Of a DNA stretch of 64,000 nucleotides, positions 47,614 to 53,890 are shown piece by piece. The stretch covers positions 1 through 64,000 of the forward strand of contig JBDLIE010000004.1 of NCBI GenBank assembly GCA_039715015.1, in the 5' to 3' direction. Every line of letters begins with the position of its first letter. Within the stretch, counting starts at the first letter, position 1. The translations under genes were made by a program, and so were the position numbers. A model generated the notes under the pieces. That model saw only the letters and a list, made by a program, of their open reading frames with translations. It had not been told where the DNA came from and did no database searches. This DNA comes from Thermodesulfobacteriota bacterium. GTDB taxonomy: Bacteria; Desulfobacterota; Desulfobulbia; Desulfobulbales; SURF-16.

Positions 47614-49788
47614 ATGGCAACTCGCGACGCACAGGAAAATCTTGGTAGTGAATTTCGGCCCCACTTTGGCTTGGAGGTCATTGCTGTCCTCGGCCTTGTT
47701 GTTTCTCTTTTTTTTCTCCTTTCTCTGGTCAGCTTTTCTGTGCCCGGTAGCGCCAATGAAATCGCTAACTGGGGCGGTGCTGTGGGCCAGCTTTTGGCCA
47801 CGGCCCTCATGAGTTTTCTCGGTTTTTCTTCGTTTTGGATACCCTTTCTTCTTATTCTCCTCTCCCTGTCACTCTTTGTACCTGATGCCATAGTTAAACG
47901 GCTCCCCTATATCTGCTTGGGGTGCACAGGTCTCATGGTGGCAAGCTCTACAATGCTTGCGGCCATCGGTCTCCAGGAGATATCGTTGCTTGACCGGGTC
48001 TATCCCCTCGGCGGCTATCTGGGCAATAAGGTCTATGGCCTGACAGCCGCCTATTTCGGCGGGCCGGGCGCGGTGCTTTTTTCCTCTGCTGTTTTTTTTC
48101 TCTCCTTCATGCTGCTTTTGCGTTTTTCTCCCTATCTTGTTTCCAAATGGATTGTTTCGAGCATTAAGGGGATCTGGATCTTTTGGCAGGCCAGGAGAAT
48201 GGATCATGATGTTGAACAAAGCATGCTTGTTGCTGAGGAGAAACCAAAAGCCAAGAAGGCCAGAGCCCGTAAGAAAAAAGAAGTGTCCCCAGATGGGCCT
48301 CGTATCTTGCCTGCTGTGAAAGAACCAATCCGTCTAAGCGTACAGGACGATGATAAGGAATTTGAACCAGTGGTTGTTGAGCCGGGCGAATACCAATTGC
48401 CAACCCTGACTTTACTCGACAAGCCGGTCGTTGACGAAATTGTTGTTGAAAAGGAGCATTACCTCTCGGTGAGCATGCTCCTTGAGGCCAAGCTCGATGA
48501 GTTTGGGGTGCGGGGTAAGGTAACCGGTATTTCCCCTGGGCCGGTGATTACCACCTATGAGTTTGAACCAGCTGCCGGTGTTAAGATAAACAAGGTTGTT
48601 TCCCTGGCCGATGATCTGGCCTTGGTCTTAAAAGCAGAGAGTGTGCGGGTGGTGGGATCCATTCCCGGTAAGGCCGCAATTGGCATTGAAATTCCCAACC
48701 CCAGCCGGCAGATCGTCTTTGTTCGTGACCTCATGGCCACCCCTAAGTTCCAGCAGGCCCACTCCATGCTTACTCTGGGTCTTGGCATGGATGTTGTCGG
48801 GAACCCGGTTACTGCTGATCTTGCCAAGATGCCCCATCTGCTTATCGCTGGTGCCACCGGTGCCGGTAAAAGTGTGGCCATTAACACCATTATCTGTTCC
48901 ATCCTCATGCGGGCCACCCCTGAAGAGGTGCGCCTGCTCATGGTTGACCCAAAGAGGATCGAGCTTTCAACCTATGAAGGTATACCCCACCTCCTTCATC
49001 CTGTGGTGGTGGACCCGAAGATGGCAAGCAGGGCCTTGCAATGGGCTGTTAAAGAGATGGAGCGCCGCTATTCTCTTATGGAGGAGGAGCGGGTCAAAAG
49101 CTTTGTCTCCTATAATGAAAGCGCAGAAGAAAAGCTGCCGCTCATTGTTATCATTATTGATGAGCTGGCTGACCTGATGATGGTCTCCTCCAAAGATGTT
49201 GAGGGCTCTGTGGCGCGTCTGGCTCAAATGGCCAGGGCTGCCGGAATGCATCTCATCCTTGCCACCCAGCGACCCTCTGTTGATGTTCTAACCGGCCTGA
49301 TTAAAGCTAATTTCCCCACCAGGATGTCCTTTAAGGTTTCCTCCAAGATCGATTCCCGCACCATCTTAGATACCTCAGGGGCCGAACATCTCCTCGGTGC
49401 TGGTGATATGCTCTTTCTGCCCCCCGGGACCGCACGCTTGCAGCGCATCCATGGGGCTTACATCTCAGAAAAAGAAACGGAACGTATTGTTGAATTCCTA
49501 AAGAGTCAAGGAACGGTCTCATATGATGAGGAGATCATTAAATCCGTTGAGGATGAGCCCGGTATCGCCGGTCTTGACGGTGAGGAATATGACGAGAAGT
49601 ATGATGAGGCCGTGTCCATAGTCTGCGAGACCGGCCAGGCCTCTATCTCGGCTGTTCAGCGGCGGCTGCGTATCGGCTATAATAGGGCGGCCCGGATCAT
49701 TGAAACCATGGAACGTGAAGGCATTGTCGGTCCGGCCGACGGCGCCAAGCCTCGAGAGGTCCTGGCCCGGCGCAGCTATGACGAGTAG
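47614..49788 (+). CDS. ftsK: DNA translocase FtsK
   Basis: N-terminal TM region, PHLLIAGATGAGKS, DELADLM, ATQRPSVDV, gamma domain QRRLRIGYNRAAR. Confidence 0.97.
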   Translation: MATRDAQENLGSEFRPHFGLEVIAVLGLVVSLFFLLSLVSFSVPGSANEIANWGGAVGQLLATALMSFLGFSSFWIPFLLILLSLSLFVPDAIVKRLPYICLGCTGLMVASSTMLAAIGLQEISLLDRVYPLGGYLGNKVYGLTAAYFGGPGAVLFSSAVFFLSFMLLLRFSPYLVSKWIVSSIKGIWIFWQARRMDHDVEQSMLVAEEKPKAKKARARKKKEVSPDGPRILPAVKEPIRLSVQDDDKEFEPVVVEPGEYQLPTLTLLDKPVVDEIVVEKEHYLSVSMLLEAKLDEFGVRGKVTGISPGPVITTYEFEPAAGVKINKVVSLADDLALVLKAESVRVVGSIPGKAAIGIEIPNPSRQIVFVRDLMATPKFQQAHSMLTLGLGMDVVGNPVTADLAKMPHLLIAGATGAGKSVAINTIICSILMRATPEEVRLLMVDPKRIELSTYEGIPHLLHPVVVDPKMASRALQWAVKEMERRYSLMEEERVKSFVSYNESAEEKLPLIVIIIDELADLMMVSSKDVEGSVARLAQMARAAGMHLILATQRPSVDVLTGLIKANFPTRMSFKVSSKIDSRTILDTSGAEHLLGAGDMLFLPPGTARLQRIHGAYISEKETERIVEFLKSQGTVSYDEEIIKSVEDEPGIAGLDGEEYDEKYDEAVSIVCETGQASISAVQRRLRIGYNRAARIIETMEREGIVGPADGAKPREVLARRSYDE

Positions 49789-49939
49789 CCAGCCCGAATG
49801 TTCGAGTCCAATCGCCTTTAACAAAAAACTTTCTTGAGGCCGTGACAGTTCTGTAATAATTATGCTTTGCTTTTGTTCTGGGAAAATTTGCAAGATTAAG
49901 CTTGTGAACTTTGACTTGCTATCTGCCTTGCCATGATCA

Positions 49940-50405
49940 ATCGCCTCATGCTCCCCTTATAAAAAATTCCAGATGGCCCGCTACTGCTACTATGGCTGGT
50001 ACTCGAACCGCATGCGAGGAGACAGGAATAAAGCGACACTGCTAGCCGAAGCAGACAGAAGAGGGGAGAAGCGGGCTTGAAGTGATTGATGCCTCTGGCT
50101 ACAAACCGCACCGTATCCCATCTCCTAACTGGCGGGAATGTATCAAAAAGATATGGGAGGTGGATCCTCTTGAGTGCCCAGACTGCCAGGCAGAAATGAA
50201 GATTGTCAGCTTTATCACCGACAACAGGGTGATTCGGAAAATTTTGACTTATTTGTACCTATGGCGAGAGCAGCCTTCCCGCAGACCGCCTGCCAGGGCC
50301 GGGCCGGAATGTAACTTTCAGCTATTATTCAAGGAGACAGCGTACAACGAGCTTAATGATGAAGGCTGGCCAGGACATGATGAGCCGTATACCACCTATG
50401 ATTGA
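49940..50405 (+). pseudogene. IS91-family transposase C-terminal remnant (frameshifted)
   Basis: FQMARYCYYGWYSNRMRG from 49967 ends in a stop; another frame continues WRECIKKIWEVDPLECPDCQAEMKIVSFI. Confidence 0.75.
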
Positions 50406-50701
50406 GGCCGGGATAAGGCGGTATGGTGAAGTCTATGCCTGCCTTTCCATGATGAATATACTTTAGAAGCAGCCTGTTGCTCATTGCGGAGTGAAAAGAT
50501 CCAGCCAACAACATGCAGCTAATGGCAGTGTTGCATGATATAGGGTTTAAATACATATACTGTATGAACAGGGTGCACTTGCCAAAGTGAATAAAGAGTC
50601 CCGAAACAGCCAGGGTGGGCGGACGAAGTACTGGTTTTCTCTCCCCCTCCCCCTTGCTTGCCACCCGCTGAAAAGCGATTTCTTATCACCTCACCTATCA
50701 C

Positions 50702-51505
50702 CTATTCACGAACCAGTGATGCGTAGACCCAGCCTTTGGTGCCATCCGAGGTCTTAATCCGATACCAAGCGCCTTTTTTATCCACGATCTTCAGCTTATC
50801 GCCCTGTCTGGCAGTTGCGACAACAGCTGAGCTGGTTGAGTTTGAGGCCCTGATGTTTGCCGTCGGTCGCGCCACTGTGACTGTTTTGGTGCCGATGTTT
50901 GTCAGACCACCCTGCAGGGATGGCGCCAATGCACTCCCCATGACGACGAGAAGTCCTACGATGAGTAGGGAACGATAGAGTTCGACAGTGACGAATCGTT
51001 TTACTCCGACCCTGTTGAGCACCGAATAGGCAACGACACCGCCAGCGATGCTCACCAACCAGAAGAGAAGGGGCGTCCCCATGACACGCAGGGTTATGAC
51101 GGCCACGAAAAAAAGAAACAATGACGGCACGAGAATCTTCATATCTTCCTTCATCTGCGGTTCTGAGAAGAAGGATGTGATACTGGCCCAAAACGATAAA
51201 GCCCCGGACTCATGTGCACGCCGCGCCATGTGCGCCGTGTGCAGTTCATTCAGTTTCTTGTCGATCTCTTGGAGCTGGCTCAACGCCTGCCGGGCCTGTT
51301 CCGTGTGTTCACTGATATCGCTGGTGCAATGGGGGCACTTGTTTGCATTGACGTGCACCAGGGTGGCACAGGCCGGGCAGGGAGTTTTGTCCTGCTTTCT
51401 TATGTTGGCCTTCTTATACGCCAGCAGACGGTTTGCCTCCTCCTGGAGGGCCGCGTACTGATTGTCTGCCTCTTTTTGACCTTGATCTTGATCCAGGGTA
51501 CTCAT
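50702..51505 (-). CDS. Zinc-ribbon / membrane / SH3b-domain protein
   Basis: CPAC..CPHC, coiled coil, ~3 TM segments, C-terminal ANIRAS...GAWYRIK..GTKGWV. Confidence 0.8.
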   Translation of the reverse strand: MSTLDQDQGQKEADNQYAALQEEANRLLAYKKANIRKQDKTPCPACATLVHVNANKCPHCTSDISEHTEQARQALSQLQEIDKKLNELHTAHMARRAHESGALSFWASITSFFSEPQMKEDMKILVPSLFLFFVAVITLRVMGTPLLFWLVSIAGGVVAYSVLNRVGVKRFVTVELYRSLLIVGLLVVMGSALAPSLQGGLTNIGTKTVTVARPTANIRASNSTSSAVVATARQGDKLKIVDKKGAWYRIKTSDGTKGWVYASLVRE

Positions 51506-51763
51506 GGGTTTTCTTCACCTCTGTACTTGGCGGCGCCTATAGCCGCGTATGTGTTGGAAACATCCCTTGCAGGACGGCTGCACCGCTTTTTAACTGATAG
51601 CCAACAAAAGCGTTTGATAGGCAAAGGGTCTGGCTATTTCGTTGATACCTAAGCTATAAATTTTACTAAACTCTAACCTTAAGTTATTTTATTAACATCT
51701 CACAAAAAACAATATCATACATCACATCACCACCGCCTGCTACAAAATTCAAAGGGGTTGTTC

Positions 51764-52693
51764 AAAGGGGTCAGGTCTTGAGATATCACATTTCTTCTGG
51801 TAGAATCACTCCATTATGGCCCGTCCACTTCGTTTAGAATTTGCTGGTGCAATTTATCACATCACCTCTCGTGGTAATGCAAGGGATGACATCTACCTTG
51901 GCGATGCAGACAGGCGTGCTTTTCTCGCAATTCTTGCTCGCACCGTTGACCGCTATAACTGGCTTTGTCATGCCTATTGCTTGATGGATAACCACTATCA
52001 CTTGCTCATCGAAACCCTTGATCCGAACCTTTCTTTAGGGATGCGTCAGTTGAACGGCATCTACACCCAGACATATAACCGCAATCACAAAAGAGTGGGG
52101 CATGTTTTCCAGGGGAGATTTAAATCAATTCTCGTTGAAAAGGGAGAACATCTCCTAGAGCTTTGTCGGTACATTGTTTTGAACCCTGTAAAGGCTGGCA
52201 TGGTTGAAAAGCCTGAACAATATCAGTGGAGTAGCTATAAAGAGACGGTCACCAATGGGAATGATAGTGCAAGTTTTTTGACCACCGAATGGGTGTTGGG
52301 CCAGTTTTCAAGTAATCGTGCAGAGGCACAAAAAAGATATACGGATTTTGTCCATGATGGTCTTACCACGCCAAAAAGTCCTTGGGAGCTTCTCCGGGGC
52401 CAGGTTTTTTTGGGGAGCGCCCAGTTTATAGCCAAAATGCAGGAGAAATTGGGAGAGAAAAAGGAGATAGGAGAAATTCCAAGGGAGCAAAGGTATCCAG
52501 GACGACCTAGCTTGAAATCTCTCTTTGCTGGGACAACCAACAGGCAAGATCGGAACGAAAAAATAAAAACAGCTCACATCGAGTATGGCTATACCCATAA
52601 ACAGATCGCCGATGAACTAGAGCTCCACTACACCACAATTAGCAGAGTAATAAATATGCGCTGAGGTGTTATAATTCAAGACCTGACCCCTTT
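51764..52693 (+). mobile_element. RAYT-type element delimited by 27-bp inverted repeats
   Basis: 51764-51790 versus 52667-52693 inverted, 24/27 match, outer 18 bp perfect. Confidence 0.8.
51816..52664 (+). CDS. Y1 HUH transposase (REP-associated tyrosine transposase-like) with C-terminal HTH
   Basis: MARPLR, YHITSRGN, CLMDNHYHLL (HUH), YIVLNP, YQWSS, YTHKQIADELELHYTTISRVI. Confidence 0.9.
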   Translation: MARPLRLEFAGAIYHITSRGNARDDIYLGDADRRAFLAILARTVDRYNWLCHAYCLMDNHYHLLIETLDPNLSLGMRQLNGIYTQTYNRNHKRVGHVFQGRFKSILVEKGEHLLELCRYIVLNPVKAGMVEKPEQYQWSSYKETVTNGNDSASFLTTEWVLGQFSSNRAEAQKRYTDFVHDGLTTPKSPWELLRGQVFLGSAQFIAKMQEKLGEKKEIGEIPREQRYPGRPSLKSLFAGTTNRQDRNEKIKTAHIEYGYTHKQIADELELHYTTISRVINMR

Positions 52694-52901
52694 CGCAAGT
52701 GGACCCCTTTCAGATCGCCGATGAACTAGAGCTCCACTACACCACAATTAGCAGAGTAATAAATATGCGCTGAGGTGTTATAATTCAAGACCTGACCCCT
52801 TTCCCAATGATAAATATGCGCTGAGGTGTTATAATTCAAGACCTGACCCCTTTCCCAATGAGGTGTTATAATTCAAGACCTGGCCCCTTTCCGACCCTTT
52901 C
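52602..52901 (+). repeat. Nested tandem copies of the RAYT right end
   Basis: Copies of 93, 45 and 33 bp plus two 9-10 bp stubs, all ending in GACCCCTTTC-like sequence. Confidence 0.9.
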
Positions 52902-52903
52902 CC

Positions 52904-53241
52904 TCCATGGGACTTACATCTCAGGAAAAGAAACGGAATGGATCGTCGAGTTCCTCAAAAATCAGGGTAGTGTCACCTATAATGAGGAGATCATTAAGTC
53001 AGTGGAGGATGAGCCCGGTATCGCCGGTCTTGATGGTGAGGAGTATGACGAGAAGTATGATGAGGCCGTGTCCATAGTCTGCGAGACCGGCCAGGCATCT
53101 ATCTCGGCTGTTCAGCGGCGGCTGCGCATCGGCTATAATAGGGCGGCCCGGATCATTGAAACCATGGAGAGAGAAGGCATTGTCGGCCCGGCCGATGGCG
53201 CCAAGCCCAGAGAAATCCTGGCCCGCCGCGAATACTCCTGA
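52904..53241 (+). pseudogene. Diverged duplicate of the ftsK 3' end (motor end plus gamma domain)
   Basis: HGTYISGKETEWIVEFLK... versus HGAYISEKETERIVEFLK...; no credible start of its own. Confidence 0.88.
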
Positions 53242-53248
53242 TTGGCCC

Positions 53249-53355
53249 GTAACTGTTCAGTAGCACCTCATCTTTGCCCATTTTGGACTTCTCACATACC
53301 AAAGTATGCTTCGAAATCCAAAATGAACAAATCTAAGGCACTTCTGAACAGTTAC
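53249..53355. repeat. 107-bp imperfect palindrome (MITE/REP-like)
   Basis: GTAACTGTTCAG...CATTTTGGA..CATAC-caaa-GTATG..TCCAAAATG...CTGAACAGTTAC; extra CTGAATAGTTAC at 53388-53399. Confidence 0.75.
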
Positions 53356-53448
53356 AGTTCGGAGTTGAGGGTAATTTCTAGCCATCACTGAATAGTTACA
53401 TTGTCACGGTGATTTTTCCCTTGCCTAATGGAGGAAAGAGAAATATGA

Positions 53449-53475
53449 GTAATACTCTTTTTTTAAAGGTGCTAC
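53449..53475. promoter_or_regulatory. Putative NikR operator upstream of nikR
   Basis: GTAATAC-N13-GTGCTAC, same geometry as the site at 53963. Confidence 0.65.
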
Positions 53476-53479
53476 GGTC

Positions 53480-53890
53480 ATGCTGAAACGATTTTCCATT
53501 TCCCTGGAGGAGGATCTCCTCGAAGATTTTGACGAGTTCATCAAGCAGCGGAGCTACGAGAACCGTTCTGAGGCCATTCGTGATCTGATTCGCAGCTCTT
53601 TTGTTAAGGACGAATGGGAGGCGGATAAGGATGTTATGGGGGTGATTACCCTGGTCTATGACCATCATCAGCCTAACCTCCAGGAAAAGGTCACGGAACT
53701 GCAGCATGATTATCACCAGCAGATTGTTTCCACCACCCATGTCCATATGGACCACCATAACTGCCTGGAGGTAATCATTGTCCGGGGCAAGGCTGCGGCG
53801 GTAAAAGAGCTGGCCAATAATCTTAGCTCTCTGCGTGGTGTGCGTGACGGCAAGCTGGCCATGAGTTCCACGGGCAAGCATCTCCATTAG
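53480..53890 (+). CDS. nikR: Nickel-responsive regulator NikR
   Basis: RFSISL ribbon-helix-helix, NRSEAIRDLIR, YDHH, HVHMDHHNCLE. Confidence 0.96.
   Translation: MLKRFSISLEEDLLEDFDEFIKQRSYENRSEAIRDLIRSSFVKDEWEADKDVMGVITLVYDHHQPNLQEKVTELQHDYHQQIVSTTHVHMDHHNCLEVIIVRGKAAAVKELANNLSSLRGVRDGKLAMSSTGKHLH

Follow-up and report, generated by a model that had tools for sequence, protein, structure and literature searches.

The 64,000-nucleotide stretch of DNA analysed here – the window – carries, at the right end of a one-gene mobile element, a ladder of nested partial copies of the element's own terminus. This ladder is a real, family-wide footprint on a known and little-studied class of elements, probably made by the element's own enzyme. 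Both the class and its chemistry are already known; the ladder itself has no function assigned to it. The scars predict where the enzyme would cut – on the strand reading GGGGTCA, 7–14 nt outside the repeat and 5' of C or A – and, since this prediction is concrete in strand, position and base, one oligonucleotide assay can test it.

The element's gene (51816–52664, plus strand) encodes a protein of 282 residues with the HUH triad H60-Y61-H62 in an NHYH motif (59–62), Y119 in a YIVLNP motif (119–124) and a predicted C-terminal helix-turn-helix (243–280). The protein matches PF01797 (Y1 HUH; E 7.9e-10) and reaches 79.5 bits with NF047646, whose cut-off is 80; H60, H62 and Y119, together with N123 and P124, are invariant in 47 of 47 aligned proteins. 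Its predicted structure (pLDDT 87.5) shows three helices at the C-terminal end (243–280) and is matched best by TnpA-REP, 4er8 (E 1e-7), which a profile search of solved structures also retrieved at E 0.027, while a single-sequence search of solved structures gave no match. HTH_23 is matched in 35 of the 47 members at E ≤0.05 (best 4.8e-6), the 282-residue protein itself reaching only E 0.034. The gene is flanked by 27-bp inverted repeats that are 89% complementary and share the core GGGGTCAG: the left one (51764–51790) forms, with its outer flank, the left end of the element (51761–51790, plus strand), and the right one (52667–52693) forms, with its own, the native right end (52667–52701, minus strand). 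A promoter-like TTGAGA-17-TAGAAT (51778–51806, plus strand), which is a consensus match only, has its –35 box within the left repeat and ends 9 nt before the ATG; three such sites were found where 3.2 are expected by chance.

An HUH-Y1 core, a C-terminal helix-turn-helix and GGGGTCAG-bearing inverted repeats of 27 bp make the element a TIRtron and its enzyme a TIRYT, the class named by Di Nocera et al. (2013, PMC3733652), which equals TnpA-Y1 subclass 2.1 of Quentin et al. (2018, PMC6006769) and RAYT group 1 of Bertels et al. (2017, PMC5581495). Its terminal repeats are reported as singles, dimers or clusters (PMC3733652), and subclass 2.1 in 14.9% of species (PMC6006769). The protein has the Y1 HUH core with NH[YF]H and Y[IV]xLNP that marks the class, although the published motif table gives Y[IV]HLNP and YIELNP (PMC6006769), against a V at the third position here; the C-terminal helix-turn-helix is present as predicted helices (243–280) and as HTH_23, and the terminal inverted repeats fit GGGG[AT][CG]A[CG]. 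With other TIRtrons the element thus has in common its Y1 HUH gene (NHYH, YIVLNP), the C-terminal helix-turn-helix, GGGGWSAS-type repeats, its single copy in the genome and the lack of REP hairpins.

The preliminary description had taken the element for a REP-associated RAYT, a reading that had to be given up: no GTAG-footed hairpin lies in 50801–53700, and neither end folds better than shuffled sequence (z –0.3 to +1.1). REPtrons are defined by GT[AG]G-footed hairpins beside the gene, of which there are none here, and by a flanking repeat that is abundant in the genome, whereas the motif has only three matches outside the element in 3.0 Mb; REPtron cleavage falls at C|T or C|A; the scars described below have no dinucleotide common to both edges. 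With the TnpA of IS200/IS605 elements (IS608, ISDra2) the enzyme shares its catalytic fold, but it is not the short, core-only protein with Y---Q of that family, having 282 residues and Y---NP; subterminal hairpins and guide tetranucleotides are used there (PMC8266576), whereas the ends of this element have no hairpins and fold no better than shuffles. A classical transposon with terminal inverted repeats and target-site duplication was likewise rejected: flanks share a word of at least 6 nt in 7 of 75 ladder-free loci, against 7.7% of shuffled pairs. Solo copies of the repeat motif, with no gene and no evident ladder, occur at G000:C6:72599–72612, C54:7159–7172 and C3:~116493, and two more, distant Y1 HUH genes are found in the genome, at G000:C46:20517–21059 (38% identity) and C26:37181–37567 (28%).

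A base-by-base check bore out every copy in the preliminary description, in coordinates and in matches. The segment 52711–52803 repeats 52602–52694 at 93 of 93 positions and 52810–52854 repeats 52650–52694 at 45 of 45; the copy at 52859–52891 has a single mismatch, at 52883; stubs are found at 52702–52711 (GACCCCTTTC) and 52893–52901 (GACCCTTTC); and, at the left end, TTCAAAGGGGT stands at both 51748 and 51761. Allowing up to one mismatch, GACCTGACCCC occurs five times in the window, against 0.97 expected, and none of 100 shuffles reached five. Two points had to be redrawn. The native end and the two long copies each start with a C outside GGGTCA, and what had been called linkers between copies (GCAAGTG, CCAATG) are therefore the outer part of the copies themselves; and the fixed edge, formerly placed at GACCCCTTTC, lies instead 7–14 nt outside the repeat.

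Positions are numbered hereafter on the strand showing GGGGTCA, with 0 as the first G of GGGTCA and negative numbers outside the element. On the minus strand, the C that starts the native end is at 52701 (the putative nick position), that of rung 2 at 52809 and that of rung 3 at 52860, which is 12, 11 and 11 nt outside GGGTCA, respectively. All five right-hand rungs read on the minus strand. Rung 1 (52702–52710) is a stub of 9–10 nt; rung 2 (52711–52809) is 99 nt long, with its C at –11, and runs 87–88 nt inward, to about +88, 93 nt being identical to the native end; rung 3 (52810–52860) has 49–51 nt, as 2 nt are common with rung 4, and runs from its C at –11 about 40 nt inward, to about +40; rung 4 (52859–52892), of 34 nt, spans –6 to about +28, with a core substitution at 52883 and its outer flank cut back; and rung 5 (52893–52903) is an 11-nt stub that directly abuts a displaced fragment of ftsK. 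Rung 4 and the two stubs, both of which end at +5, are eroded. The left end has one short rung (51748–51760, plus strand), consisting of TTCAAAGGGGT plus 2 nt, with a spacing of 13. Although 93 nt are identical, a substitution and an indel within 12 nt separate the flank of the native end from that of rung 2. Each long rung contains an outward TGTTATAAT, which we take to be of the extended –10 type. At the joint of rungs 3 and 4 an ATG arises that opens a predicted 127-aa frame (52858–53241), fused to the FtsK gamma-domain fragment and with no ribosome-binding site evident.

That the ladder is an artefact of assembly at repeated sequence is unlikely, and we give this explanation next to no weight, even though the assembly is metagenomic and most of the stretch was found in a single sequencing run, X1. 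Logan unitigs of X1 cross 52665–52740, 52781–52839 and 52832–52950 without other letters; their depths (35.7, 35.7 and 40.9) are below the 52 of the gene, a point in favour of an artefact, but the shared core stands at 88 and 116, a depth of about 2x and 3x. X1 may be the assembly's own source, so the agreement is that of a second assembly of probably the same reads rather than of a second sample. This comparison with sequencing data nonetheless favours a real ladder, as do the sequence differences between the rungs and the recurrence of the pattern on megabase contigs and in the complete record of an isolate. Length variants, for which the preliminary description had suggested a search, did not appear: no alternative joint is listed among the X1 unitigs, although contigs drop rare variants, so that this says nothing about their absence. 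A further run, X2, covers a small share of the stretch in short pieces and was left out of the junction check, and no RNA run is among the runs listed with the stretch. Short joined repeat pairs were seen at low depth in X1.

Like ladders occur throughout the family, a point that the preliminary description had proposed to test. Loci were drawn from genome contigs (80) and from metagenomes (80), each the best 80 of about 590 matches, and from the phylum (29), which with the window gave 190 loci – mostly from metagenome-assembled genomes – and 333 ends with a recognisable repeat; 313 were kept, the other 20 being near a contig end, N-containing or identical, while 11 left and 19 right ends with full flanks had no usable repeat. 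Taking as a rung any exact repeat of at least 10 nt anchored on the end, and leaving the window out, we find anchored duplications in this best-match sample at 84 of 311 ends – 42 of the 162 on the left and 42 of the 149 on the right – and in 71 of 182 loci. Shifted anchors gave 1 of 252 and 8 of 259 (9 of 511 in total), random anchors 48 of 2760 and gene-end anchors 2 of 317. Ends of DDE insertion sequences, found automatically in 60 IS256/ISL3 loci, gave a lower rate as well (4 of 67; Fisher p=9e-5). That terminal duplications do occur at some DDE ends counts against the mechanism proposed below; the right ends of L257 and L259, both ISL3 loci of this control set, show them.

Both ends of the elements are affected, across many phyla. 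Rungs are present at four of the seven loci on contigs longer than 1 Mb, and the complete isolate record (L203) has one running from a C at –9 to +5. Ladders on the two sides of a locus are weakly coupled at most (present on both sides in 13, on the left alone in 17, on the right alone in 24 and on neither in 75; p=0.06). Single rungs reach 136–287 nt in some loci, and the longest arrays comprise about ten short, motif-based units (right ends of L005 and L008). These two are the most telomere-like cases among the loci surveyed. For the window, the earlier likening to a telomere found no functional support, and a telomere function was rejected: the array is internal to its contig and its outer rungs are eroded. 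Among other observations, a gene-less, MITE-like pair of inverted repeats lies directly upstream of the gene at L028:2860–2995, and the elements of L007, L039, L043 and L057 appear to be seated in coding sequence whose flank motifs are presumably of the RHS/YD-repeat type; at L007, part of the target seems to be deleted.

The geometry of the duplications is polar. An unfiltered scan of 301 ends places 44 tandem starts at –20 to –1, another 5 within the element and 27 at a greater distance outside it. A set of 56 perfect events, to which each end contributed no more than one and which was filtered for starts between –20 and 0 of the motif, has the outer edge at –14 to –7, that is 7–14 nt beyond GGGTCA, in 54 cases. 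In the 33 of the 56 that are unambiguous, being free of microhomology, the duplication starts with C in 20, against 7.7 expected (a value reached in 0 of 100,000 simulations), and with A in 10. Their inner edges range from –2 to +53 and fall exactly at +6 in 12; overall, the inner edge varies from 7 to about 290 nt. The preliminary description had seen a fixed outer end with a variable inner one, and this held: at 21 ends with several rungs, the window's included, the median range is 7 nt for the outer and 17 nt for the inner edge, the outer varying less at 16, equally at 2 and more at 3 (p=0.005). Dispersed second copies (L034, L044, L020) have the flank in common to about –7 and then diverge, and over –8 to –1 the flanks on the two sides of an element resemble each other slightly more than expected by chance (0.378 against 0.300). 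Over the 313 ends, positions –9 to –3 are A-rich (0.38–0.44) and mostly T-poor on the GGGGTCA strand, which may reflect either a target preference or the outcome of repeated rewriting.

On the GGGGTCA strand, these data are a joint of a fixed 5' end with an arbitrary 3' end. HUH enzymes leave a 5'-phosphotyrosine and a 3'-OH, which can prime synthesis or attack another phosphotyrosine, and in vitro the 3'-OH of an added oligonucleotide resolves the phosphotyrosine of TnpA-REP (PMC8266576). The reading we favour, and hold to be somewhat more likely than not, is that the ladder consists of one-sided duplications arising in repeated rounds, in each of which a nick would be made outside the repeat, extended by a polymerase of the host and re-ligated to the tyrosine-bound 5' end. 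The helix-turn-helix would bind the repeat and set the distance to the cut; the HUH enzyme would nick 7–14 nt outside the inverted repeat on the GGGGTCA strand, Y119 keeping the 5' end of that strand; and the 3'-OH of the flank would prime displacement synthesis a short way into the element, which would mostly come to a halt at the motif (between –1 and +7, with the mode at +6), probably on running into bound protein. The new 3'-OH would then resolve the phosphotyrosine, placing the new copy on the flank side and leaving the inner repeat intact; because the inner repeat would survive, rounds could accumulate. On this view the ladder would record rolling-circle initiation that was aborted, and would not be a functional array.

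We infer the cut strand, the base and the dependence on the enzyme from the scars, and several features count against the proposal: 13 of the 33 unambiguous events start with a base other than C, the outer edge is a 9-nt zone and not a single position, the sharp mode at +6 could also be explained by a second nick, and 10 of 30 long copies differ within 7 nt beside the motif, so that joints are not always clean. Filler bases and altered bases next to the outer edge, including the native flank compared with rung 2, are outside its reach and stay unexplained. An origin in HUH nicking and rejoining, as the preliminary description had suggested, is nevertheless the best explanation that we can infer.

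Ordinary replication slippage, or unequal recombination at the G-run without the enzyme, could amplify an existing rung, and the runs of similar short units in L005 and L008 are in keeping with it; for the first rungs, it is rejected on microhomology and polarity. Joints with 0, 1 and 2 nt of microhomology make up 59, 23 and 9%, against 54, 26 and 12% for random joining, which agrees with the earlier dismissal of simple slippage, and the polarity is strong; with the narrow outer-edge zone, its C bias and the far lower counts at control positions, this largely refutes slippage, which we regard as highly unlikely to account for the ladders. The same numbers bear on an enzyme that nicks the other strand (3' of TGACCCC), or merely blocks the fork, and leaves the copying to host repair or template switching. 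What is a C preference on one strand can be read on the other as a preference for G 5' of a nick, and the fillers and altered flanks point to processing by the host. A 3' end that re-primes further upstream, however, normally does so through microhomology, no excess of which is seen, and only the GGGGTCA strand provides the fixed 5' end that HUH chemistry requires at the joint, leaving this route rather improbable.

Somewhat less improbable, though still doubtful, is that each rung records two enzyme cuts, the outer nick and a second one near +6. The second could fall on the new strand, following the BIME model, whose legend (PMC3333891, Fig. 7B) includes a second cleavage, or on the opposite strand, where filling in and rejoining of the staggered break would resemble the making of a target-site duplication. 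The 12 of 33 unambiguous events with an inner edge exactly at +6 speak for it, as does the opposite strand, which at +6 reads C|T in the consensus, the dinucleotide of TnpA-REP (PMC8266576). The events compatible with +6, however, have G in 12 and A in 2, matching the background ratio of 272:34, so that C|T is not required there; long rungs end at unrelated dinucleotides; and a common dinucleotide on one strand predicts microhomology of at least 2 nt, which 10 of the 56 events have, as by chance. Microhomology thereby also rejects a two-site exchange at C|T or C|A.

Repeated nicking and rejoining, our preferred reading, has a close precedent in the model of Ton-Hoang et al. for BIME amplification by E. 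coli TnpA-REP – nick, extension, second cleavage and joining (PMC3333891, Fig. 7B) – with which it shares the nick, the extension of the 3'-OH by host polymerase, the attack on the first phosphotyrosine and the gain of one tandem unit. The BIME model has needs of its own, namely a GTAG-footed hairpin, C|T cleavage and a second cleavage, and yields similar units (PMC3333891). No description of such a product was found in our literature search, but nick-extend-rejoin had already been proposed for tandem units with TnpA-REP (PMC3333891, Fig. 7B). The accessible parts of the TIRtron literature (PMC3733652, PMC6006769) describe neither one-sided nested duplications nor the cut site, and no mapped cut site for subclass 2.1 was found in these parts; our literature search found no nested duplications at TIRtron ends, and subscription journals and supplements could contain one. 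The element described here differs from the BIME system in having no hairpin, an outer edge whose distance from a linear repeat is set and which lies 5' of C or A, and nested lengths from 7 to about 290 nt. Its scars offer genomic evidence for the nick-extend-rejoin step proposed for REP/BIME amplification.

A further parallel is with IS91 and ISCR elements, in which an HUH nick at a defined end is followed by displacement synthesis into the element, with variable termination and capture of adjacent DNA. IS91 has a larger, different transposase, one origin end and one terminator, whereas the two ends of a TIRtron are inverted copies, both of which stutter (on the left in 42 of 162 cases and on the right in 42 of 149). 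We raise, tentatively and as a possibility that we would not put on a par with nicking and rejoining itself, that a TIRYT may be a distance-measuring nickase-ligase: its helix-turn-helix would sit on a linear double-stranded repeat, the cut would fall at C or A one helical turn outside, and the 5' end would be joined to any 3'-OH, short read-through giving nested arrays and long read-through moving the element together with kilobases of adjacent chromosome, without target duplication, as in the ftsK island described below, where the 3' end of ftsK would have been exchanged for that of another lineage. If true, this would be a two-origin, hairpin-free form of rolling-circle gene capture, in a subclass reported from about 15% of species.

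The island in question, of 3.45 kb (49448–52903), begins with the 3' end of an incoming ftsK (49448–49788, plus strand), which completes a functional gene, and continues with a C-terminal remnant resembling an ISCR/IS91-type transposase (50082–50405, plus strand; NF052416, E 1.3e-4, far below the cut-off), a second element of HUH type beside the TIRtron, and with a gene (50702–51505, minus strand) whose product is a membrane protein carrying an SH3 domain at its C-terminus. Its right junction is the outer edge of the TIRtron, where the outermost stub abuts the displaced 3' end of the ancestral ftsK (52904–53241, plus strand; 90% identical to 49448–49773), itself followed by a nikR-like gene. 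Between the two ftsK tails, 23 codons differ synonymously and 9 non-synonymously. Identity to congeners (79–83% against 78–83%) does not tell which is native; gene order and C-terminal residues do. A nikR-like gene stands close behind ftsK in seven of seven congeners, and the C-terminus is REYS, RDYS or RDY in the six in which it was examined; the fragment ends in REYS ahead of the nikR-like gene, but the C-terminus of the full gene is RRSYDE. The fragment also departs from residues that are conserved in the relatives shown, with T in place of A, G of E, W of R and N of D. Gene order, C-termini and these substitutions together indicate that the island – foreign ftsK tail, ISCR-like remnant, SH3 gene and TIRtron – displaced the native tail.

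To judge by the decay of the fragment, set against the perfect 93-nt copy, rung 2 seems to postdate the island. The island junction, a single case, may be the work of the enzyme; if it does share the origin of the ladder, 'domesticated' enzymes of this kind would have a part in carrying chromosomal DNA from one lineage to another as well. The spacer separating the ftsK fragment from the nikR-like gene contains an inverted repeat with 43-nt arms (53249–53355), which is not in the congener spacers shown, has relatives on at least five other contigs and many variants in runs X1 and X2, and probably belongs to a MITE/REP-like family.
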